From the NCBI GenBank assembly GCA_043741515.1, contig JAYUAE010000213.1, forward strand, positions 1-38,105: 38,105 nt of DNA, given 5' to 3'. Below are positions 9,700-18,426 of this stretch, piece after piece (the first letter of the stretch is position 1; each line of letters starts with the position of its first letter). This DNA is from Candidatus Eiseniibacteriota bacterium (GTDB lineage: Bacteria; Eisenbacteria; RBG-16-71-46; SZUA-252). The notes below the pieces were generated by a model. The model ran no database searches. It was not told the origin of the DNA and worked only from the letters and a program-made list of their open reading frames with translations. The position numbers and the translations under genes were made by a program.

Positions 9700-10644
9700 G
9701 TGGGCCGCTCCCCGCTCCGTCCGCTCCGCCAGAAGCTCGAGGTCCTGTTACTCCGCTCTGCCGGGTTTGTCGCCCGCGCGCTGCCCTTCGCCTGGACGAG
9801 CGCGCTCGGCGCCGGCGTCGGTCTTCTGGCGTTCCATCTCATGGGCCGCCGCCGCCGCATCGCCGTCGAGAACATCACCCGAGCGCTGGGTCCCACGGTG
9901 GATGGCGTTTCCGCGCACGGGCTGGCGCGCCGCGCGTTCGCCCAGATCGGACGCTCCTTTCTGGAATTCCTGGCCCTGCCGCGGCTGGGCCACGAGGGAA
10001 TCCTGGCCCGCGTGGAGATGATCGGCTTCGAGCAGGTGCTGGAATGGGCGCGCGCCGGCAGAGGGGCGGTGGTGCTCACCGCGCATTACGGAAACTGGGA
10101 GATCCTGGGCGCGTCCATGCGGGCGGCGGGCGCGCCGATGCGCTACCTGCTCCCGCCGCAATCCAATGAGGGAAGCGACGCCTACTTCGACTCGATCCGC
10201 GAAAAGCTGGGCATCCCGTCGGTCAAGATCGGATACGGCATGCGCGGAGCGCTCAAGGCGCTCCGGGCCGGCGCCTTCCTCGGCATGCTGCCCGACCAGG
10301 ACGCGCGGCGCGTGGGGATCCACGTTCCTTTCTTCGGGCGCCCGGCGTCCACGCACACGGGACCCGCGCGTCTTGCCTACCGGGCGCGCTGTCCGATCGC
10401 GATCGGGCTGATCGAGCGCATGTCCGGGGGCCGCTTCCGCTCGCAGGTCCTCGCGGTGCTCGTGCCGGATCCCGAACGGGAAGAGGCGCGCGAGGTGGAA
10501 CGGATCACGCGCGCGATCAACGAGACGATCGAAGCGGGTGTGCGCCGCCGCCCCGATCACTGGTACTGGCTGCACCGCCGCTGGAAGACGCCGCCGCCTA
10601 CCCCGCCAACCCAGCCCGCAGCGCAGCCGCCGCCTACGTCGTGA
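9700..10644 (+). CDS. Lipid A late acyltransferase (LpxL/HtrB family)
   Basis: HYGNWE, LPDQD, VPFFGRPAST, PDHWYWLHRRWKT; GTG start just after the dprA stop is inferred. Confidence 0.88.
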   Translation: MGRSPLRPLRQKLEVLLLRSAGFVARALPFAWTSALGAGVGLLAFHLMGRRRRIAVENITRALGPTVDGVSAHGLARRAFAQIGRSFLEFLALPRLGHEGILARVEMIGFEQVLEWARAGRGAVVLTAHYGNWEILGASMRAAGAPMRYLLPPQSNEGSDAYFDSIREKLGIPSVKIGYGMRGALKALRAGAFLGMLPDQDARRVGIHVPFFGRPASTHTGPARLAYRARCPIAIGLIERMSGGRFRSQVLAVLVPDPEREEAREVERITRAINETIEAGVRRRPDHWYWLHRRWKTPPPTPPTQPAAQPPPTS

Positions 10645-10936
10645 ATCCGATGTCCTTGGCGGGCATGTCGAACGTCTTGATCTTCCCGAACTGATCCTCG
10701 TACTTCTTCACGTTCGTCTCGAGCGCCGCGAGCAGCGAGCGCACGTTGGGCGGCGTCATGACCACCCGCGCGAAGACCTTGCTCTTCGGGCTTCCAGGCA
10801 GGATCCGCGCGAAATCGAGCACGAACTCCGAAAGGGAATGGCTGATCACCACGAAATTCGAGTAGATCCCCTCCGCTTCCTTCTCGCCCAGCTCCATGTT
10901 GATGGACCCGGGCGGGTTCTGAGCTTTGGCCTCCAT
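10634..10936 (-). CDS. DUF3467-family protein
   Basis: AEGIYSNFVVISHSLSEFVLDF...RVVMTP...NVKKYEDQFGKI; ATG preceded by AAGGAGG. Confidence 0.85.
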   Translation of the reverse strand: MEAKAQNPPGSINMELGEKEAEGIYSNFVVISHSLSEFVLDFARILPGSPKSKVFARVVMTPPNVRSLLAALETNVKKYEDQFGKIKTFDMPAKDIGFTT

Positions 10937-10982
10937 CTGTAATCCTCCTTTTTCCAAAGGGTTGCCTCCACAAAGCGGTCTC

Positions 10983-11011
10983 AAGATATCGCCTAAGCTG
11001 CCGTAAATCAA
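10983..11011 (-). promoter_or_regulatory. Putative sigma70 promoter for DUF3467 gene
   Basis: On - strand TTGATT-17 nt-TATCTT. Confidence 0.55.
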
Positions 11012-11065: not shown

Positions 11066-13288
11066 ATGGGTACGAAGCGGGCGGGGTCAGCGCGGGTCGA
11101 GGAACAGATCGTCGTCGCCTGGAAGCGGTATGCGGATCGAAGGGCCCAGGGCCTGCACCGCATCGCCGACGGCGCATGCTACATGGAGCCGCGCCCGTGT
11201 CCGTTCGGGGCGAGGCCCGATTTCGAGACCCGGTTCGCGACCGACTGCGTCCACTGCTCGCGCGTCCAGGGAGCCGCCGAGAACGCCGGACTGGAGCTCG
11301 AGGGCGCGCCCGGCGTGGCCCCCACGCTGGCGCTCCTCCTCCACCTTCTCGACGAGGAGGCGAAGGCGGTCCGTGTCGAGCACGAGAACGGATTGGAGGA
11401 CGAGGCGGAGCGCTATCGCAGCGCCGGCTTCCTCTTCCGGGCCATACCGCTCATGCACGTTGCCCTGACGCACGATCGGATCGCGAGGATCCTGCTCGCG
11501 GCGATCGGAGGCGCGTTCGCGCAGGAAGTCGACACCATCCTCCTTTTCCGCATCGTGTCGGAAGGATCGGCGCTGGAGCTGGCGGATGCCTTCCGCCGGG
11601 CCGACAGAGGAAATCCGGAGGCGCCGGCGCGAACACCGCTCGACCTCGACACCTTCGAGTCCGAGGGAGGATTCGACGGCGACGTGTTTTCGCGCCTGCG
11701 TGAAGAGCGGCTTCTGCTCGAGCCGGACCACGATCTCCTGGCGGACGCGGTATTCGACGGCCGGGCGTCGATGATCGCGAGCCCGCGACGTGAGCTCCGG
11801 CTTCCGGAGCGCGTGGTCGAGTCGCTGCCCGACGGTCCCGTCGCCGTTCTCCCCGTCTTCGGCCGCGAGAAGGTGCTCGGCATTCTCGTGGTGTCGCAGG
11901 CCCCGGGCCATTCCGGCTGGACCGCCGACCAGATCGAGCTCCTGAACGCGATCGCGGCGCAGGGCGGGATCGCCTTCGAGGGGAACACGGTGCTCGACGT
12001 CGTGCGGCGGCGGGGCAACGCCGTGCGCTCGGCGATCGACTTCAGCCGCGCGGCCGCACAACCCTCGCGTCCCGACGTGCGCGCCGAACAGGCGCTGAAG
12101 ACGCTCCTGGCGTCCACCCAGGCAGCGGGGGGCGTCGCGTGGGTCCGCGCGGAGGACGGCTCCATCGAGCTGGCACACGTGCACGCGGTGGACCCGGGCT
12201 CGACGCAGGACCTCTCGAAGCTGGGGACGTGGTTCACGCAGTGGTTCGACGCGGATTCCAAGCCCATCCTGGCGGACGCCGTGAGCGGGGATCCTCGCTT
12301 CTCGGGCTCGCTGCCGGACGACTGGCGCTGCCTGCTCGCGGCTCCGACCCACGGGGGGGACCGGGTCACCGGCGTGCTCCTGGTCTTCAACAAAGCCGGC
12401 GGCACCCAGGACGATCCGCTCTGCTTCGATTCCGAGGACGCGCGAGTCGCGGAGCTGATCGCGGCCATCGCCTCGCTCTCGGATACACGCTTCTCCCAGG
12501 AGGAGACGCTTCGCCTCAAGGACCGCCGCCTCCACGAGGTGGAAGCGCAGCTCCGCCACGCTGAGAAGCTCGCCGTCGTGGGCGAGCGCGGAGTGCAGGT
12601 GGCGCAGGACGTTCGCAATCCCGTGGCGGCCATCATGGGATTCGCCAAGCGCGTGCTGAAATCGCTTCCGGCCAAGGATCCCAATCGCGAATACCTCGAG
12701 ATCATCCTCCGGGAGACCGAGCGTCTTGAGCGGGTGCTGAGCGAGCAGGTGGCGCTGGCCCAGATGACCAAGCCCCGGCTCAAGCTGGAGAACCTGAACG
12801 CGCTCGTCCAGGACGTGCTGCAAGCGCAGGCGGAAGACCTCGTGCGCCGGCGGGTGCGCCTCTTGAAAAGGCTTAGCCCCGAGGTGCCGTCGCTCCTCCT
12901 CGACAACGAGAAGATGCGCCAGGTGCTGGTGAACGTGCTGAGCTATGCGCTCCACTCGGTGCCCATGGGCGGGCGCGTGCGGGTCGAGACGCGCGCCGCG
13001 CAGGGAGCGGTGCAGGCCGAGATCGCCCACGATGGACCCAAGGTGGCGGGGGAGGCGCTCGACCGTCTCTTCGTCCCGTTCTCCACCACCCGGCGCTACG
13101 GCGCGGGGGTGGGGCTCGCGATGGCCTACCAGATCGTTCGCGAGCATGGCGGCGAGATTCGCGCCCGCAGCGAGGGGGACTGGAGCAGCATCGTCACCAT
13201 CTACCTGCCCACCCGCGAGAATGACGACCGGAGGAACCGGCCGGACAGACGCGACATACGTCCCGACCGCCGCCGCCGCCTCGCCTAG
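11066..13288 (+). CDS. Cytoplasmic GAF-GAF-HisKA-HATPase-like protein, probable pseudo-histidine kinase
   Basis: SD GGGAGG; GAF-like ends (LPVFGREKVLGILVV...WTADQIELLNAIA; VTGVLLVFNK...FDSEDARVA); AEKLAVVG..VAQDVRNP; LFVPFSTT; GAGVGLAMAYQIVREHGG; no TM helix seen. Confidence 0.85.
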   Translation: MGTKRAGSARVEEQIVVAWKRYADRRAQGLHRIADGACYMEPRPCPFGARPDFETRFATDCVHCSRVQGAAENAGLELEGAPGVAPTLALLLHLLDEEAKAVRVEHENGLEDEAERYRSAGFLFRAIPLMHVALTHDRIARILLAAIGGAFAQEVDTILLFRIVSEGSALELADAFRRADRGNPEAPARTPLDLDTFESEGGFDGDVFSRLREERLLLEPDHDLLADAVFDGRASMIASPRRELRLPERVVESLPDGPVAVLPVFGREKVLGILVVSQAPGHSGWTADQIELLNAIAAQGGIAFEGNTVLDVVRRRGNAVRSAIDFSRAAAQPSRPDVRAEQALKTLLASTQAAGGVAWVRAEDGSIELAHVHAVDPGSTQDLSKLGTWFTQWFDADSKPILADAVSGDPRFSGSLPDDWRCLLAAPTHGGDRVTGVLLVFNKAGGTQDDPLCFDSEDARVAELIAAIASLSDTRFSQEETLRLKDRRLHEVEAQLRHAEKLAVVGERGVQVAQDVRNPVAAIMGFAKRVLKSLPAKDPNREYLEIILRETERLERVLSEQVALAQMTKPRLKLENLNALVQDVLQAQAEDLVRRRVRLLKRLSPEVPSLLLDNEKMRQVLVNVLSYALHSVPMGGRVRVETRAAQGAVQAEIAHDGPKVAGEALDRLFVPFSTTRRYGAGVGLAMAYQIVREHGGEIRARSEGDWSSIVTIYLPTRENDDRRNRPDRRDIRPDRRRRLA

Positions 13289-13291
13289 GCG

Positions 13292-13321
13292 TTGACCCTA
13301 GGTGGCGCCCCATGCTAAAGT
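13292..13321 (+). promoter_or_regulatory. Putative sigma70 promoter for tRNA-Phe/Thr
   Basis: TTGACC-18 nt-TAAAGT with extended TG, just upstream of tRNA-Phe. Confidence 0.6.
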
Positions 13322-13332
13322 TCCCGTCCGGC

Positions 13333-13408
13333 GCGACCCTAGCTCAGTTGGTAGAGCACCACGCTGAAAACGTGGGTGTCCGCAGTTCGATTCTGCGGGG
13401 TCGCACCA
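13333..13408 (+). tRNA. tRNA-Phe (GAA)
   Basis: Acceptor GCGACCC/GGGTCGC, anticodon arm CCACG-CTGAAAA-CGTGG, TTCGA loop, encoded CCA. Confidence 0.96.
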
Positions 13409-13460
13409 TTCATTTTCGTGAGGCCCCCCACGGAAGAGCTTCGCGACTCTCGAATTCCAA

Positions 13461-13536
13461 GCTGGTGTAGCTCAGCTGGTAGAGCACGTCACTCGTAATG
13501 ACGGGGTCACCGGTTCGATTCCGGTCACCAGCTCCA
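13461..13536 (+). tRNA. tRNA-Thr (CGT)
   Basis: Acceptor GCTGGTG/CACCAGC, anticodon arm CGTCA-CTCGTAA-TGACG, encoded CCA. Confidence 0.96.
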
Positions 13537-13574: not shown

Positions 13575-15029
13575 ATGACCAAAGATCGCCACGCCGCGCA
13601 CCCGCTCCAGGGGGACGCGGCGGGAGCGCGGGGCGAGGAGCCCCGGGGCTCCGATCCCTTGCAGGGCCTCATGATAAGCGCTTCCGGAGTTCGCGGGATC
13701 GTCGGGCAGACGCTCACGCCCGAGGTCGTGCTCCGGGTCGCGGGCGCGCACGCTTCCTTTCTCGATCCGGGGCCGGTCGTCGTCGGGCGGGACACCCGGC
13801 CGAGCGGCGCCTGGGTCTCGCGCCTGACGCACGCCGCGCTCCTTGCGTCCGGACACGACGTGATCGAGGTCGGCGTCGCGCCGACCCCCACCATCCTCTT
13901 CGCGATCCGCCACCATTCCGCGTCGGGCGGGATCGCCATCACCGCCAGCCACAATCCCGCGCCATGGAACGCGCTCAAGCTCTTCGGACCGGGCGGCACC
14001 TTTCTCGCGCCCGCGCAGTCGGAAGAAGTGGCTCGGCGCGCCAGGCAGGGCCGCGCGTCGTGGGTCACGAACGACAGGGTCGGAGCGTTCCGCGAGGACA
14101 AGGGTGCCATCCAGCGCCACCGCGACGCGATTCTCGCGCTCCCGGGGCTCGATCTCGACCGGATCCGCAGACGCCGCTTCCGGGTGGTGATGGATGCGAC
14201 CAATGGTGCGGGCTCGATCGCGACTCCGGCGCTCCTCGAGGCGCTGGGCTGCGAGGTGGAGCGGCTCTACTGCGAGCCCGACGGGCGCTTCCCGCGCGTC
14301 GCCGAGCCCTTGCCCGAGAATCTCGGGGCGCTCGGCGATTGCGTGCGCGCGACGGGAGCGGCGATCGGATTCGCGAACGATCCCGACGCCGACCGGCTCG
14401 CGATCGTGGACGAGCGCGGGCAGCCGATCGGGGAGGAGCGAACGCTCCAGATCGCGGTTGACTGGGCGCTGTCCCAGAATCCGGGACCGGTGGCGGTCAA
14501 CGCGTCGACCTCGATCGGGGTCGAGCTGATCGCGAGGCGGTACGGCGCGCCGGTGCACCGGACCAAGATCGGCGAGGCGCACGTCGCGCAGAAGCTGATC
14601 GAGATCGGAGGCGTGATCGGCGGGGAGGGAAACGGCGGGGTGATCTATCCCGCGCTCCATGTCACCCGCGATGGTCTTCTCGCGGCGGCGATCGCCATGG
14701 ACTGGCTCGCGCGCGACACGCGGCCCCTGAGCGCGCGCGTGGCGGAGCTTCCCCCGGTGACGATGGTCAAGCGCAAGCTCGACCTGAAACTGGAGGACGC
14801 GGACTCCCTCCGGGAAGCGTTGACCCGGGCCTTCCCGGACGGGCAACGCAATGTTCTGGACGGGGAAAAGTACCTCTGGGAAGATTGCTGGGTCCAGGTG
14901 CGCGCCTCGGGGACCGAGCCCATCGTGCGGATCCTGGCGGAAGCCCCGACCCAGGAGAAAGCGGAGTCGCTGGCCCACCGGGCGACCGAAGCGGTCGAGC
15001 GTTCGCAAACGCACGCCCGGGCACGCTAA
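13575..15029 (+). CDS. glmM: Phosphohexomutase (phosphoglucosamine mutase / phosphomannomutase family)
   Basis: SGVRG, GRDTR, ITASHNP, DPDADR, GGEGNGG, RASGTEP; directly upstream of glmS; substrate specificity inferred from context. Confidence 0.75.
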   Translation: MTKDRHAAHPLQGDAAGARGEEPRGSDPLQGLMISASGVRGIVGQTLTPEVVLRVAGAHASFLDPGPVVVGRDTRPSGAWVSRLTHAALLASGHDVIEVGVAPTPTILFAIRHHSASGGIAITASHNPAPWNALKLFGPGGTFLAPAQSEEVARRARQGRASWVTNDRVGAFREDKGAIQRHRDAILALPGLDLDRIRRRRFRVVMDATNGAGSIATPALLEALGCEVERLYCEPDGRFPRVAEPLPENLGALGDCVRATGAAIGFANDPDADRLAIVDERGQPIGEERTLQIAVDWALSQNPGPVAVNASTSIGVELIARRYGAPVHRTKIGEAHVAQKLIEIGGVIGGEGNGGVIYPALHVTRDGLLAAAIAMDWLARDTRPLSARVAELPPVTMVKRKLDLKLEDADSLREALTRAFPDGQRNVLDGEKYLWEDCWVQVRASGTEPIVRILAEAPTQEKAESLAHRATEAVERSQTHARAR

Positions 15030-15046
15030 AGAGGAGCGAAGCGAAC

Positions 15047-16873
15047 ATGTGCGGCATCGTCGGATATGTCGGATCGCAGGAATCGCTGCCCATCCTCCTC
15101 GAAGGGCTGAGGAGACTCGAATACCGGGGCTATGACTCCGCGGGCGTGGCGATCCTGAACGGCCAGGGGCTGTCGGTCCGGAAGGCCGCCGGCAAGATCG
15201 CCATCCTCGAAGGGATCCTCGACGGCGCGAGACCCGAGGGATCGCTGGGCATCGCGCACACGCGCTGGGCCACCCACGGCGAGCCGAACACCGTCAACGC
15301 GCATCCCCACGTGGACTGCAGGCAGAACATCGCCGTGGTCCACAACGGCATCATCGAGAACTACGTCACAGTCAAGAAGAAGCTCTTGCAAGAGGGTCAT
15401 CGCTTCACCACCGACACCGACACGGAAGTGATCGCCCATCTGATCGAGAAGTACTTCGAGGGAAACCTCGAGCGCGCCGTCGCGGCCGCGCTCCAGCACG
15501 TCACCGGAACCTACGGCATCGCGGTCATCGCGCGGGACGATCCCGGCAAGATCGTCGGGGCGCGCCACGGAAGCCCGCTGGTCGTGGGGATCTGCGACTC
15601 CGAATACATCCTCGCCTCCGACGTCTCGGCCATCATTCGCCACACGAATCAGGTGGTCTACCTGGACGACGGCGAGATGGTGGTGCTCACGCCGGCGGGA
15701 ATCTCCACGACCACGATCCGCGAGGAGATCGTCAACAAGCGCGTGGAGACCGTGGACTGGGATCTCGACATGATCGAGAAGGCGGGCTTCCCGCACTTCA
15801 TGCTGAAGGAGATCTTCGAGCAGCCCAATTCGCTTCGCGACACGCTCCGCGGCCGTCTCATCGCCGATGAAGGGGCCGCGCGCCTGGGCGGGCTCAACAT
15901 GTCACCCGCCGAGCTGCGCGCGATCACGCGCGTCGTGATCACCGCGTGCGGCACGTCCTGGCACGCCGGCATGATCGGCGAGTACATGATCGAGGAGCTG
16001 GCGCGCATCCCGGTGGAGGTGGAGTACGCCTCCGAGTTCCGCTACCGGAACCCCATACTGGAGCCCGGGACGCTCGTGATCGCCATCAGCCAGTCGGGAG
16101 AGACCGCGGATACGCTCGCCGCCATGCGCGAGGCGAGGCGCCGCGGCGCGCGGGTGCTCGGATTCTGCAACGTGGTCGGAAGCACCATCGCGCGCGAGTC
16201 GGACGGCGGCGTCTACATCCATGCGGGCCCCGAGATCGGGGTCGCCTCCACGAAAGCGTTCACCTCGCAGGTCGCGGCCCTGGTGCTGTTCACGCTCTAC
16301 GTGGGCCGGCTCGGCGAGCTTTCCTCCGAGCTGGGAGCCGAGCTGACGCGCGAGCTGGGCCAGATCCCGGAAAAGATCGAGCGCATCCTCGCGGGCGCCG
16401 ACAAGGTGGAGGCGATCGCCAAGGCCTACGCGCACCACAACAACTTCCTCTACCTGGGGCGCGGGTACAACTTCCCGGTCGCGCTCGAGGGCGCGCTGAA
16501 ACTGAAGGAGATTTCCTACATCCACGCCGAGGGCTATCCGGCGGCCGAGATGAAACACGGCCCGATCGCGCTCATCGACCAGAACATGCCGGTCGTGTTC
16601 ATCTGCACCCAGGATTCCGCCTACGAAAAGGTGTTGAGCAACATGGAGGAAGTCCGCGCGCGGCGCGGCAACATCATCGCGATCGCCTCCGAGGGTGACG
16701 AGCACGTGGCGACCAAGGCCGATCAGGTGATCTACATCCCGCGCACCCTGGGACCGCTGACGCCGCTCCTCTCGGTCGTGCCGCTGCAGCTCCTGTCGTA
16801 CTACATCGCGGTCGAGCGGGGGTGCGACGTGGACCAGCCGCGCAATCTCGCGAAGAGCGTCACCGTCGAGTGA
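15047..16873 (+). CDS. glmS: Glutamine--fructose-6-phosphate aminotransferase
   Basis: MCGIVGY start after GAGGAG, LEYRGYDSAG, HTRWATHG, SQSGETADT, QPRNLAKSVTVE. Confidence 0.97.
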   Translation: MCGIVGYVGSQESLPILLEGLRRLEYRGYDSAGVAILNGQGLSVRKAAGKIAILEGILDGARPEGSLGIAHTRWATHGEPNTVNAHPHVDCRQNIAVVHNGIIENYVTVKKKLLQEGHRFTTDTDTEVIAHLIEKYFEGNLERAVAAALQHVTGTYGIAVIARDDPGKIVGARHGSPLVVGICDSEYILASDVSAIIRHTNQVVYLDDGEMVVLTPAGISTTTIREEIVNKRVETVDWDLDMIEKAGFPHFMLKEIFEQPNSLRDTLRGRLIADEGAARLGGLNMSPAELRAITRVVITACGTSWHAGMIGEYMIEELARIPVEVEYASEFRYRNPILEPGTLVIAISQSGETADTLAAMREARRRGARVLGFCNVVGSTIARESDGGVYIHAGPEIGVASTKAFTSQVAALVLFTLYVGRLGELSSELGAELTRELGQIPEKIERILAGADKVEAIAKAYAHHNNFLYLGRGYNFPVALEGALKLKEISYIHAEGYPAAEMKHGPIALIDQNMPVVFICTQDSAYEKVLSNMEEVRARRGNIIAIASEGDEHVATKADQVIYIPRTLGPLTPLLSVVPLQLLSYYIAVERGCDVDQPRNLAKSVTVE

Positions 16874-17271
16874 GCCGCGACCTCCGAACCACTATCCACA
16901 CCCCGGACGCCCCGGCCGCCATCGGGCCCTACGCCCAGGGAAGGACGGGACCTCTTTCGGGACGCTGGCTCGTATCTTCCGGGCAGGTGGGGCTCTTGCC
17001 CGCGACCGGCGCGCTGGTTCCAGGCGGCGTCGGAGCCGAGACCGAGCGCGCGCTCCGGAATCTCGAGGCGGTATTGAAGGCAGGAGACGCGGGCTTCGGG
17101 GACGTCGTCAAGACCACGGTATTTCTCGCCGACATGGCGGATTTCGCGGCGATGAACGAAGTGTATGCCCGCTTCTTCCCGGACCCGAAGCCCGCGCGAA
17201 GCACCGTCGCGGTCCGTGGCCTCCCCAAGGACGCGCGGGTCGAGATCGAGGTCTGGGCGTTCCTCCCGTGA
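16870..17271 (+). CDS. ridA: RidA/YjgF enamine-imine deaminase
   Basis: GTGA overlap with glmS; APAAIGPY, SGQ, VKTTVFL, MNEVY, PARS, LPK..RVEIE. Confidence 0.9.
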   Translation: MSRDLRTTIHTPDAPAAIGPYAQGRTGPLSGRWLVSSGQVGLLPATGALVPGGVGAETERALRNLEAVLKAGDAGFGDVVKTTVFLADMADFAAMNEVYARFFPDPKPARSTVAVRGLPKDARVEIEVWAFLP

Positions 17272-18323
17272 GCCACGCGCCGCACGATCCGGTCCGACTG
17301 ACCGAGCAGGTTTCCTGCGCCGGCTGCGCCGCGAAGCTGAGCCCGGTGGACCTGAAGGACGTCCTGTCCGTCCTGTCGGGCTCGCCGCGGTTGAAGGGCG
17401 TTCTCGTGGGGCCGGACACCTGGGACGACGCCGGGGTCTTCCGCATCTCGGCCACGCGGGCGCTGGTGCAGACCGTCGATTTCTTCACGCCCATGGTGAA
17501 CGACCCGTTCGAGTTCGGACGGATCGCCGCGACGAACGCGCTGAGCGACGTCTATGCGATGGGCGGTACGCCGCTGACCGCGCTCTCCATCGTCTGCTAC
17601 CCCGAGTCGGGCGACATGCAGATCCTCCGCGAGATCCTTCGCGGGGGCGCCGAGACCCTGAAGCGGGCGCGCGTCGCTCTCATGGGCGGGCATTCCGTGC
17701 GCGACAAGGAGATGAAGTTCGGCTTCGCGGTCACCGGTGAGGTCCACCCCAAGCGCATCGTTTCCAACGCGGGCGCCAGGAGCGGCGACGTCCTCGTGCT
17801 CACGAAGCCGCTCGGGGTCGGCATCCTCGCGACCGCGCTCAAGCAGCGGCTGCTCCCGGAGGACTCGATCCGATTGATGACCGAGCAGATGGCCACCCTG
17901 AACCGCGCCGCCGGGGATGCCATGCAGGCCGTGGGCGTGAGCGCGGCGACCGATGTGACCGGCTTCGGCCTCCTGGGCCATGCGCTGAACGTGGCGCGGG
18001 CGAGCAAGAAGACGATCCGCATCTGGAGCGCCGCGGTTCCGGTCCTTCCGGGCGTGCTCCGCCTCGCGGATCGCGATATCGTCCCGGGGGGGCTCCACAC
18101 CAACGCGGCCTACGTCGCGCCGTTCGTGACGTTCGAGGAGAACGTGCCCGAGGCTCTTCGCAAGGTGTTCGTCGACCCGCAGACTTCGGGCGGGCTCCTG
18201 ATCGCGGTCCGGCCGTCGCGCGCGAACGCGCTCATGTCCCGCCTCGCGCGCGCCAAGGTCGCCGGGGCGATCATCGGCGAGGTCCGGCCGCGGCGCGCGC
18301 GGCCCCTCGAAGTTGACGCGTGA
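17268..18323 (+). CDS. selD: Selenide, water dikinase (selenophosphate synthetase), Cys form
   Basis: CAGCAAKL (TGC codons), DDAGV, TVDFFTP, NALSDVYAMGG, TKPLGVG, TDVTGFGLLGH, DPQTSGGLL. Confidence 0.96.
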   Translation: MSHAPHDPVRLTEQVSCAGCAAKLSPVDLKDVLSVLSGSPRLKGVLVGPDTWDDAGVFRISATRALVQTVDFFTPMVNDPFEFGRIAATNALSDVYAMGGTPLTALSIVCYPESGDMQILREILRGGAETLKRARVALMGGHSVRDKEMKFGFAVTGEVHPKRIVSNAGARSGDVLVLTKPLGVGILATALKQRLLPEDSIRLMTEQMATLNRAAGDAMQAVGVSAATDVTGFGLLGHALNVARASKKTIRIWSAAVPVLPGVLRLADRDIVPGGLHTNAAYVAPFVTFEENVPEALRKVFVDPQTSGGLLIAVRPSRANALMSRLARAKVAGAIIGEVRPRRARPLEVDA

Positions 18324-18328
18324 GTTCC

Positions 18329-18426
18329 GGGGACGGATGGGTTCTGGTGGACTCCGAGGACTTCAAATCCTTACGTCGGGCGCTAAAACCGTCCGAGGTG
18401 GGTTCGATTCCCACACGTTCCCGCCA
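18329..18426 (+). tRNA. selC: tRNA-Sec (TCA)
   Basis: Anticodon arm GAGGA-CTTCAAA-TCCTT, 6-bp D stem with TGGT loop, long variable arm TCGGGCG/CGTCCGA, T arm GTGGG-TTCGATT-CCCAC, G discriminator + CCA; 5 nt after selD. Confidence 0.93.

Follow-up and report, generated by a model that had tools for sequence, protein, structure and literature searches.

A conserved pseudo-histidine kinase without its receiver at a fixed locus of Candidatus Eisenbacteria

A stretch of 38,105 nucleotides from a Candidatus Eiseniibacteriota bacterium (positions 1 to 38,105 of contig JAYUAE010000213.1, assembly GCA_043741515.1; hereafter the window) carries a gene for a histidine-kinase-like protein of 740 residues that keeps the kinase fold, has its phospho-acceptor His replaced and is under purifying selection, strongest on its DHp-CA core, which together mark it as a pseudo-histidine kinase. 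Orthologues in seven other families of the phylum still possess the His and are followed by a stand-alone receiver gene, and this receiver is gone from the window's own family (hereafter f1). The interpretation that we favour, with moderate confidence, is that of a selected pseudokinase that arose from a two-component pair resembling ThkA/TrrA, had its receiver deleted, and would now sense through a Cys4 module and tandem GAF domains and deliver its output by binding instead of phosphotransfer. The gene is real, and its interpretation as a selected pseudokinase is supported by the evidence below; its function we infer.

Both the 740-aa frame, intact in the open reading frame (ORF) list and its translation, and the domain series given by an earlier reading of the same DNA (the original prediction), i.e., a Cys4 module, two GAF domains, a dead kinase core and an Arg-rich tail, are recovered here, the latter by Pfam and by the family alignment. 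The GC content at third codon positions (GC3) of the gene is 0.88, in line with the other genes of the window. Pfam matches GAF (in two stretches), HisKA (residues 512–565; 37.4 bits vs. a cut-off of 26.9) and HATPase_c (residues 613–717; 59.5 bits vs. 26.4), and both a DHp (HisKA) domain and a GHKL-type CA fold are present according to Pfam and the structure model. The closest named kinases in NCBIfam are AtoS (E 1.8e-50) and ZraS (E 5.4e-45), but the scores (172 and 154 bits) stay below the respective cut-offs (646 and 479) and the protein is an orthologue of neither. The features of the gene are as follows:

11066..13288, forward strand: pseudo-histidine-kinase gene, stop codon included (ORF, GC3, Pfam domains, 50 family members).
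11171..11263, forward strand: Cys4 module, residues 36–66, C38-x6-C45-x15-C61-x2-C64 (four Cys invariant in 30/30 aligned family members).
11471..11980, forward strand: GAF domain 1, about residues 136–305 (Pfam GAF/GAF_2/GAF_3; model with a predicted local distance difference test score (pLDDT) of 80–93; Foldseek tandem-GAF folds).
12071..12400, forward strand: GAF domain 2, about residues 336–445 (second Pfam GAF stretch; secondary structure and pLDDT of the model; Foldseek).
12506..12760, forward strand: DHp (HisKA) helical hairpin, residues 481–565 (Pfam HisKA; modelled helices 481–533 and 540–565, pLDDT 89).
12605..12607, forward strand: CAG, Gln514 at the position of the phospho-acceptor His, in VAQDVRNP, with D515 and N518 kept (codon; HMMER alignment).
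12782..13213, forward strand: CA (HATPase_c-like) domain, residues 573–716 (Pfam HATPase_c; model; best structural match ZraS 9jfj).
12944..12946, forward strand: TAT, Tyr627 at the position of the Mg-binding N-box Asn, in NVLSYAL (codon; HMMER alignment).
13028..13042, forward strand: G1 box remnant H655-D-G-P-K659, in IAHDGPKV (codons; HMMER alignment).
13067..13117, forward strand: F box (LFVPF, 668–672) to G2 box (GAGVGL, 679–684), the ATP-lid region, retained (invariant columns).
13214..13285, forward strand: Arg-rich C-terminal tail, residues 717–740, N-x-DRR..PDRR..PDRRRR (motif count in orthologues).

Three things that a competent HisKA kinase requires are missing from the protein, namely the phospho-His, the N-box Asn and a G1 box of either the DxGxG or the ThkA type (NxGxP). 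When the core is aligned to ZraS (9jfj; HMMER, E 5.8e-35), Q514 falls on the phospho-His, Y627 on the N-box Asn, H655 (CAC, 13028–13030) on the G1 Asp and K659 (AAG, 13040–13042) on the second G1 Gly, while the Q514 column holds the phospho-His of ZraS, ThkA and KinB. Judged from these residues, the protein cannot use a canonical His and is without the Mg-binding Asn, and it would have lost both ATP binding and autophosphorylation. The original prediction had placed the Gln codon at 12605–12607 (CAG) and the Tyr codon at 12944, exactly where we find them, and it had also seen that the F and G2 boxes of the ATP lid are intact; indeed, LFVPF and GAGVGL are conserved stretches in which F669, V670, P671, F672, G681, G683 and L684 are invariant across a 30-member family alignment. 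Its description of a degenerate G1 box holds only in part: H655 and K659 do replace the expected residues, but the box was already non-canonical, of the ThkA type, in the His-bearing forms. In ThkA (3a0r), the equivalent place reads N-S-G-P-P, and because ThkA shares this type of G1 box and its CA domain was deposited with ADP and Mg (3a0t), the ancestral N-[DE]-G-x-P box is a working subtype and not a degenerate box. Since the His-bearing orthologues already display N-[DE]-G-x-P, only the changes from N to H and from P to K at G1 are new in f1. Nor are the three losses private to one gene; instead, they are part of a phylum-wide shift in one orthogroup with its cognate receiver deleted.

Regarding the structure, the full-length model, computed from a 30-row alignment, is good only for the GAF domains, its CA domain being poor (pLDDT 40–50), and a model of the DHp-CA core based on a 143-row alignment reaches a pLDDT of 89.2 and displays the standard hairpin and GHKL domain. 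The best structural matches of the latter are ZraS 9jfj (query-normalised TM-score, TMq, 0.77; 30% identity), DivL 4q20 (Foldseek E 4.7e-15, 22–24% identity) and the ThkA CA domain. The GAF region of the model resembles the tandem GAFs of PDE5/PDE6 and the phytochrome GAF-PHY fold (Foldseek).

The window protein belongs to a sharply bounded family of 50 database proteins (E down to 1e-150, next match at 5e-22). Its relatives are 50–87% identical, so that the assemblies are not copies of one sequence, and the full-length members have 732–750 aa, without stops inside the matches in genomes. In the alignment of 30 of the 50 proteins (near-duplicates and fragments left out), the C-terminal half is the best conserved portion; Q514, A654-H-D-G-P-K659 and Cys38/45/61/64 are invariant, and position 627 is Tyr in 27 proteins and His in 3. 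Counted on codons, i.e., over the 39 distinct C-terminal sequences obtained from 65 family loci, Q514 is present in 39/39 (CAG in 38, CAA in one), Y627 in 36/39 (His in the other 3), H655 and K659 in 39/39 each, and so are D/E515 and N518. Because the substitutions recur in 39 distinct sequences from independent assemblies, they are due neither to chance nor to sequencing error. Moreover, each replacement residue (Q514, Y627 and H655) lies a single base change away from the ancestral His, Asn and Asn, so reversion would be easy; none was seen.

Selection was estimated by pairwise ratios of nonsynonymous to synonymous substitution rates (dN/dS; Nei-Gojobori, NG86) between the window and 11 loci of its genus (66 pairs), with DHp taken over residues 481–605 and CA over residues 606–716. 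The resulting values, given below, are approximate, dS being high (0.7–0.9) and GC3 about 0.88, and their ranking is clear nonetheless:

Whole pseudokinase gene: 0.149
N-terminus: 0.187
GAF1: 0.180
GAF2: 0.224
DHp: 0.049
CA: 0.023
Tail: 0.146
GlmS: 0.084
GlmM: 0.148
Obg: 0.151
DUF3467: 0.265

Both DHp and CA thus stand below the housekeeping enzyme GlmS. One might instead suppose that a one-time kinase is degenerating into a pseudogene now that its partner is lost. The missing receiver would be in keeping with this, as would the sister families f16 and f18, with their long terminal branches and the variety of residues found at the corresponding catalytic sites. In f1, the frame is intact in the close full-length relatives and free of stops, dN/dS is 0.149 overall and 0.02–0.05 in the core, the substituted residues are invariant and the gene is present in 40/40 genomes, which makes decay extremely improbable. 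The central proposal of the original prediction, a selected non-catalytic protein as opposed to a decaying gene, is therefore supported by site conservation and dN/dS alike: close orthologues keep Q/Y/H, not H/N/D, and the dead core is far from a dN/dS near 1. The roles that it attached to the protein, as a signalling hub and perhaps a phosphatase or heterodimer partner, are putative.

At the scale of the phylum, the pseudokinase belongs to a single-copy orthogroup spread across Candidatus Eisenbacteria. A match at E<=1e-40 is found in 176/206 genomes (a tally that includes the unpublished genome G073, on which no other claim depends) and in 40/40 genomes of f1, while the genome of the window (2.06 Mb, 85.6% complete) has one such match and about 20 weaker matches to the kinase core. 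The locus is fixed as well: a DUF3467 gene lies divergent upstream in 30/30 f1 loci reaching that far and in most loci of other families, and GlmM is downstream in 33/35 f1 loci, the remaining two stopping at a contig edge. Outside f1, 41 loci were considered (40 from 14 other families, plus L036), in which the recurring order is DUF3467 (reverse strand), kinase, receiver when present, tRNA-Phe, tRNA-Thr, GlmM and GlmS. The tRNA pair sits between the kinase (or receiver) and glmM in 18/18 loci scanned. In the window, the corresponding landmarks are:

10634..10936, reverse strand: DUF3467 gene, divergent neighbour conserved phylum-wide, context only (Pfam PF11950, E 1.7e-25).
13289..13332, forward strand: 44-nt gap from the stop codon (13286–13288) to tRNA-Phe, the place of the receiver gene in His-bearing orthologues.
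13333..13536, forward strand: tRNA-Phe (13333–13408) and tRNA-Thr (13461–13536), conserved downstream landmark (ARAGORN, Rfam).

The His is present in 20 of the 41 loci outside f1, invariably together with the N-box Asn. In these loci, the position of the G1 Asp is taken by Asn (16), Thr (3) or Ser (1), the box type being N-[DE]-G-x-P instead of DxGxG, and a stand-alone CheY-like receiver gene lies directly downstream in 19/20, the exception being L085. Seven families besides f1 keep the His, the N-box Asn, the ThkA-type G1 box (NxGxP) and the downstream stand-alone receiver. The 21 loci without His (Q, E, R, N, A or V instead) comprise three with a receiver (all from family f5), 13 with none before the tRNAs or GlmM, and five that cannot be judged owing to contig ends. 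As for the window, the original prediction had described the kinase as an orphan, with no response regulator nearby, and we agree: none of the 33 candidate ORFs scanned has a receiver domain. With an ancestral receiver (P0121, from L036) as a query, the best match in the genome of the window is 36% identical, and five other f1 genomes (90–99% complete) yield at most 40% identity, always inside long multi-domain frames; in comparison, syntenic receiver orthologues score 37–80% identity to P0121. Hence, this query recovered no orthologue of the ancestral receiver from the genome of the window or from the five near-complete relatives; about 19 other receiver-like matches occur in the former.

In a maximum-likelihood tree of 57 rows (quick method, six outgroup rows), the families f1, f12, f16 and f18 form a single clade of 28 rows, supported at 98% by the Shimodaira–Hasegawa-like approximate likelihood ratio test (SH-aLRT), whereas f5 lies elsewhere, grouped with f2 and f4 (99%). 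Members of the clade have no adjacent receiver wherever the DNA reaches far enough, and those sampled are devoid of His except L085. Because the His-less f5 sits outside this clade, the His was lost at least twice. L085 (genome G156, f18) keeps both the H-box His and the N-box Asn, with Ser at the G1 position, and about 1.9 kb separate its kinase from GlmM; it may have stayed a kinase or reverted to one, or there may be a different gene downstream. A further locus, L103, is on a very long branch. The f1 subtree itself has a long stem (0.5) and short inner branches, a pattern that fits a burst of change followed by constraint. When compared with 19 His-bearing orthologues, f1 displays a fixed difference at 13/261 C-terminal positions, among which six are before or at the His site (504, 505, 508, 509, 511 and 514) and two are in the pocket (627 and 655).

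Where f5 still has a receiver (three loci), the H box carries Gly or Ser at +4, and not Thr or Asn. The receiver of L098 (genome G024) has Gly at the phospho-Asp position (VILGINL vs. VILDIKM in others), so that this pair looks like a pseudokinase with a pseudo-receiver, and f5 would represent a second, independent move to a phosphorylation-free pair. Separately, the receiver of L117 shows EG instead of the acidic DD pair.

These loci also bear on whether the window protein could be a dedicated phosphatase, with its DHp domain (D515-x-x-N518) dephosphorylating, under GAF/Cys4 control, a regulator phosphorylated by another kinase. Such a role is possible because a D/E-x-x-T/N motif lies beside the former His site in 39/39 family sequences; DHp is strongly constrained (dN/dS 0.049), and the receiver-docking helix is little changed from the His-bearing orthologues. 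His-less mutants of NtrB and EnvZ are known to keep phosphatase activity, and a bacteriophytochrome of Deinococcus reportedly acts as a phosphatase. For the latter protein, the accessible part of the source describes an absence of kinase activity (PMC8292422), and the accessible part of the PsmA study presents the D/E-x-x-T/N motif as crucial for HisKA phosphatase activity (PMC12963549). On the other hand, the cognate receiver is gone from the locus and without a detected orthologue in six family genomes, so a new substrate must be assumed; DivL keeps its boxes, yet is no phosphatase according to the accessible part of its description (PMC4211667); and the Gly/Ser at +4 in 3/3 receiver-bearing f5 loci, together with the loss of the Asp from one of these receivers, argues against phosphatase activity as the conserved role of the His-less forms. 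Altogether, we consider this explanation rather unlikely.

It seems still less probable that the protein is an enzyme with unconventional chemistry, in which the remodelled pocket (Y627, H655, K659 and the G2 lid) would bind another nucleotide or ligand, and either phosphorylate a different residue (e.g., His498) or a partner, or work as a ligand-binding switch. CA is the most constrained region (dN/dS 0.023), lid and G2 box included, and the replacements are specific and invariant, unlike in f16/f18 where the same sites vary. His498 (codon 12557–12559), in the same helix and 16 residues before the former phospho-His, is invariant in 30/30 family members. By hand count only, the matching position in the His-bearing orthologue of L036 is Arg. 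Nevertheless, those 16 residues put His498 more than four helical turns from the canonical site, the Mg-binding Asn is lost, and likewise the N-box Lys of His-bearing orthologues at position 630, where f1 has His, Gln, Thr, Ser or Ala. Furthermore, no precedent came up in the searches made of the literature on pseudo/degenerate histidine kinases.

The Arg-rich tail begins after the last strand with N-x-[DE][RK]R, which is followed by further [DE][RK]R triplets. This motif occurs in 42/42 orthologues examined across the phylum (at least three triplets in 39/42, at least two in all), irrespective of what has become of His, pocket and receiver, and is absent from 11/11 related kinases of other phyla. 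Two trivial origins were rejected: the tail is not a genome-wide tag, the sole match in a high-GC3 frame of the genome of the window being the pseudokinase gene, nor is it a by-product of a tRNA promoter sequence, since the receiver gene, where present, intervenes between tail and tRNAs and the tail is conserved all the same. In a wider census of 149 representatives of 50%-identity clusters (six dropped, one of the three sites being gapped), 102 have the tail, of which 26 have the His and 20 the full His/Asn/G1-Asn set. Among the 41 representatives without a tail, 39 have the His, the two exceptions looking like truncated members of the tail group. As only 26/102 tail-bearing representatives have the His, the His-less state is the majority state of the orthogroup by cluster count.

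Retained by all orthologues even where the His, the ATP site or the receiver has gone, the tail might itself deliver an output without any phosphorylation, by attaching to something acidic, for instance nucleic acid, polyphosphate or a protein surface. On this view, phosphotransfer would never have been the whole task of the module; the protein would be a one-component sensor, kinase chemistry an accessory shed at least twice, and the remodelled pocket (Y627/H655/K659, lid intact) a site that f1 re-fixed for a new ligand or partner. We hold this to be improbable; if true, the orthogroup would show one and the same gene in a natural series that runs from kinase, through pseudokinase accompanied by a pseudo-receiver, to orphan pseudokinase.

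At the other end of the protein, residues 1–115, which include the Cys4 module, have no NCBIfam or Pfam match at E<=10 and do not reach the model cut-off of the two-CW domain (NF045718). The Cys-rich N-terminus of L078, a His-bearing orthologue from f13, gives a sub-threshold two-CW match (15.2 bits vs. 35, E 0.021), and the spacing of the module (C-x6-C-x15-C-x2-C) parallels the second half of that N-terminus (C-x6-C-x14-C-x2-C). Consequently, the module is either older than the loss of catalysis or was swapped between lineages.

Returning to the selected pseudokinase that we favour, the ancestor was a cytoplasmic two-component pair, composed of a tandem-GAF sensor kinase and a stand-alone receiver, single-copy and at a fixed position across the phylum. 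The receiver gene was deleted in the clade containing f1, the phospho-His changed into Gln, the Mg-binding Asn into Tyr and the adenine-contacting G1 residue into His, after which constraint on the protein became strongest in the DHp-CA core. A metal/redox or small-molecule signal would still be sensed by the Cys4 module and both GAF domains, which would move this core, and the output would be signal-dependent binding, via conserved surfaces of DHp and CA, the ATP lid among them, via the phylum-wide Arg-rich tail, or via both.

Several points weigh against this scenario, in addition to the approximate nature of the dN/dS values. The presumed loss of ATP binding is read from residue identity. 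The ATP lid, the F box and the G2 box are kept and rank among the most conserved stretches, as would be expected of a retained nucleotide or ligand pocket no less than of a surface for binding. In 39/39 family sequences, the D-x-x-N motif of HisKA phosphatases is also kept. Finally, one outgroup row (P0143) falls inside the ingroup of the tree, which was inferred by a quick method.

With respect to the genomic environment, the window is a housekeeping block with, on one side of the pseudokinase, a PilQ-like secretin, RsmD, CoaD, an aminotransferase, an IDH-like protein, Obg, HEAT, DprA, a lipid A acyltransferase and DUF3467, and then, after it, tRNA-Phe, tRNA-Thr, GlmM, GlmS, RidA, SelD, tRNA-Sec, LepA and further genes. 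Over the entire window, Rfam detects five tRNAs only, with no riboswitch and no glmS ribozyme. As listed (10634–11011; 125 aa from a TTG at 11011), the DUF3467 ORF is probably overlong: since its upstream extension has stops in relatives, the start is most likely the ATG at 10936 (100 aa), which leaves a divergent intergenic region of 129 nt before the pseudokinase gene. The DUF3467 protein has no NCBIfam match, and a protein atlas gave only DUF3467 clusters; a complex prediction between it and residues 116–740 of the pseudokinase returned a score of 0.00 ("no answer"), which speaks neither for nor against binding. Similarly, the listed GlmS ORF (14885–16873, forward strand) starts at a TTG with about 54 extra N-terminal residues, and GlmS probably begins at about 15047, because the usual start MCGIVG is found there, just past the GlmM stop at 15029. 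SelD is directly followed by tRNA-Sec (18329–18426; together 17268–18426), as in the three f1 loci checked (L001, L013 and L027).

Among the 35 close loci, eight (L004, L010, L014, L018, L021, L025, L028 and L035) belong to bins that bear the names of other phyla (Binatia, Latescibacterota, Limnocylindrales, Bacteroidota, Hyphomicrobiales, Omnitrophota, Acidobacteriota and Dormiibacterota), yet share the synteny of Eisenbacteria in full, which points to mis-binning of the contigs or to labels that are out of date. In genome G103 (f18), two matches are on different contigs, L110 (at a contig end, GlmM downstream) and L111 (DUF3467 upstream); these could be two paralogues or an assembly/binning duplicate. 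RNA of the source organism was not found among the sequencing runs searched. Four soil metatranscriptome runs share 5–7% of words, and their contigs at >=85% likeness cover mainly the two tRNAs, along with brief, diverged stretches over DUF3467 and a single 149-nt stretch (12878–13026) with 15 differences; coming from relatives, and being contigs only, they are uninformative on the transcription of the pseudokinase.

Pseudo-histidine kinases are known from only a few cases (DivL, PsmA). Searches of the literature on Eisenbacteria histidine kinases and on pseudo/degenerate histidine kinases, supplements lying outside them, yielded no description of f1. What distinguishes the present case is that the gene occupies the same chromosomal position, in a single copy, throughout a phylum, that all three catalytic sites are replaced by fixed residues, that tandem GAF, Cys4 and tail are combined, and that the dead core is more constrained in f1 than GlmS. 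Moreover, the stages of the transition are still extant, from a seemingly active kinase accompanied by its receiver, through His-less kinases that retain a receiver (without Asp in one instance), to the His-less orphan. Although the phylum is uncultured and all sequences are from metagenome assemblies, this natural variant set makes it possible to ask which surfaces of a kinase core get reused once catalysis is lost, and the uncharacterised conserved tail motif is a possible output.

When known systems are considered, ThkA/TrrA of Thermotoga maritima (3a0r, 3a0t) is the closest model of the ancestral state: ThkA is cytoplasmic, belongs to the same HisKA subtype, has a G1 box of the form N-x-G-P-P and is paired with a stand-alone receiver, and the His-bearing orthologues of the seven Eisenbacteria families resemble it in these traits. 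ThkA has the His, the N-box Asn and a PAS sensor, whereas the window protein has lost both residues and the receiver, and features GAF-GAF, Cys4 and the tail. ZraS/AtoS, which are HisKA kinases with NtrC-type partners, come closest to the DHp-CA core in both sequence and structure, but differ in being membrane kinases with canonical H, N and G1 residues. In plants, the histidine-kinase-related domain (HKRD) of phytochromes and the subfamily-2 ethylene receptors also combine a GAF-containing sensor with a His-less kinase-related domain that acts via protein interaction. These are eukaryotic proteins binding bilin or ethylene, and even though the tandem GAF region of the window protein resembles the phytochrome GAF-PHY fold, there is neither close homology nor evidence for a chromophore.

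The two bacterial pseudo-histidine kinases are nearer in kind, and f1 is of independent origin and distinct from both. DivL of Caulobacter crescentus (4q20) and the window protein share sensor domains and a DHp-CA fold without phospho-His, kept by selection. As far as the accessible part of its description goes (PMC4211667), DivL has neither kinase nor phosphatase activity and acts by binding, attaching DivK~P on its docking face while its ATP lid is restricted, and only its His is replaced, by Tyr, the N, G1, F and G2 boxes being kept. In contrast, the window protein changes His, N-box Asn and G1, and where DivL has PAS sensors and DivK~P as a partner, it has Cys4 with tandem GAF, an Arg-rich tail and a deleted ancestral single-domain receiver. 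It is thus no DivL orthologue: it has Gln and not Tyr, N and G1 are lost, its sensors are GAF domains and no single-domain receiver orthologue was recovered; the identity of only 22–24% likewise points to a separate origin. PsmA of Streptomyces, published in 2026, is described in the accessible part of its report (PMC12963549) as a pseudokinase conserved throughout its family, in which the His is missing and the ATP motifs are degenerate, and which binds DivIVA. According to the same part, its His position varies between species (D, Q, V or Y), the D/ExxT/N motif is absent and the lid seems incompatible with ATP (PMC12963549). PsmA is a hybrid that combines PAS and REC domains with a long disordered linker. 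PsmA and f1 are both conserved pseudokinases with a replaced His and degenerate ATP motifs but, unlike PsmA, f1 has invariant replacement residues and keeps D-x-x-N, the F box and G2.

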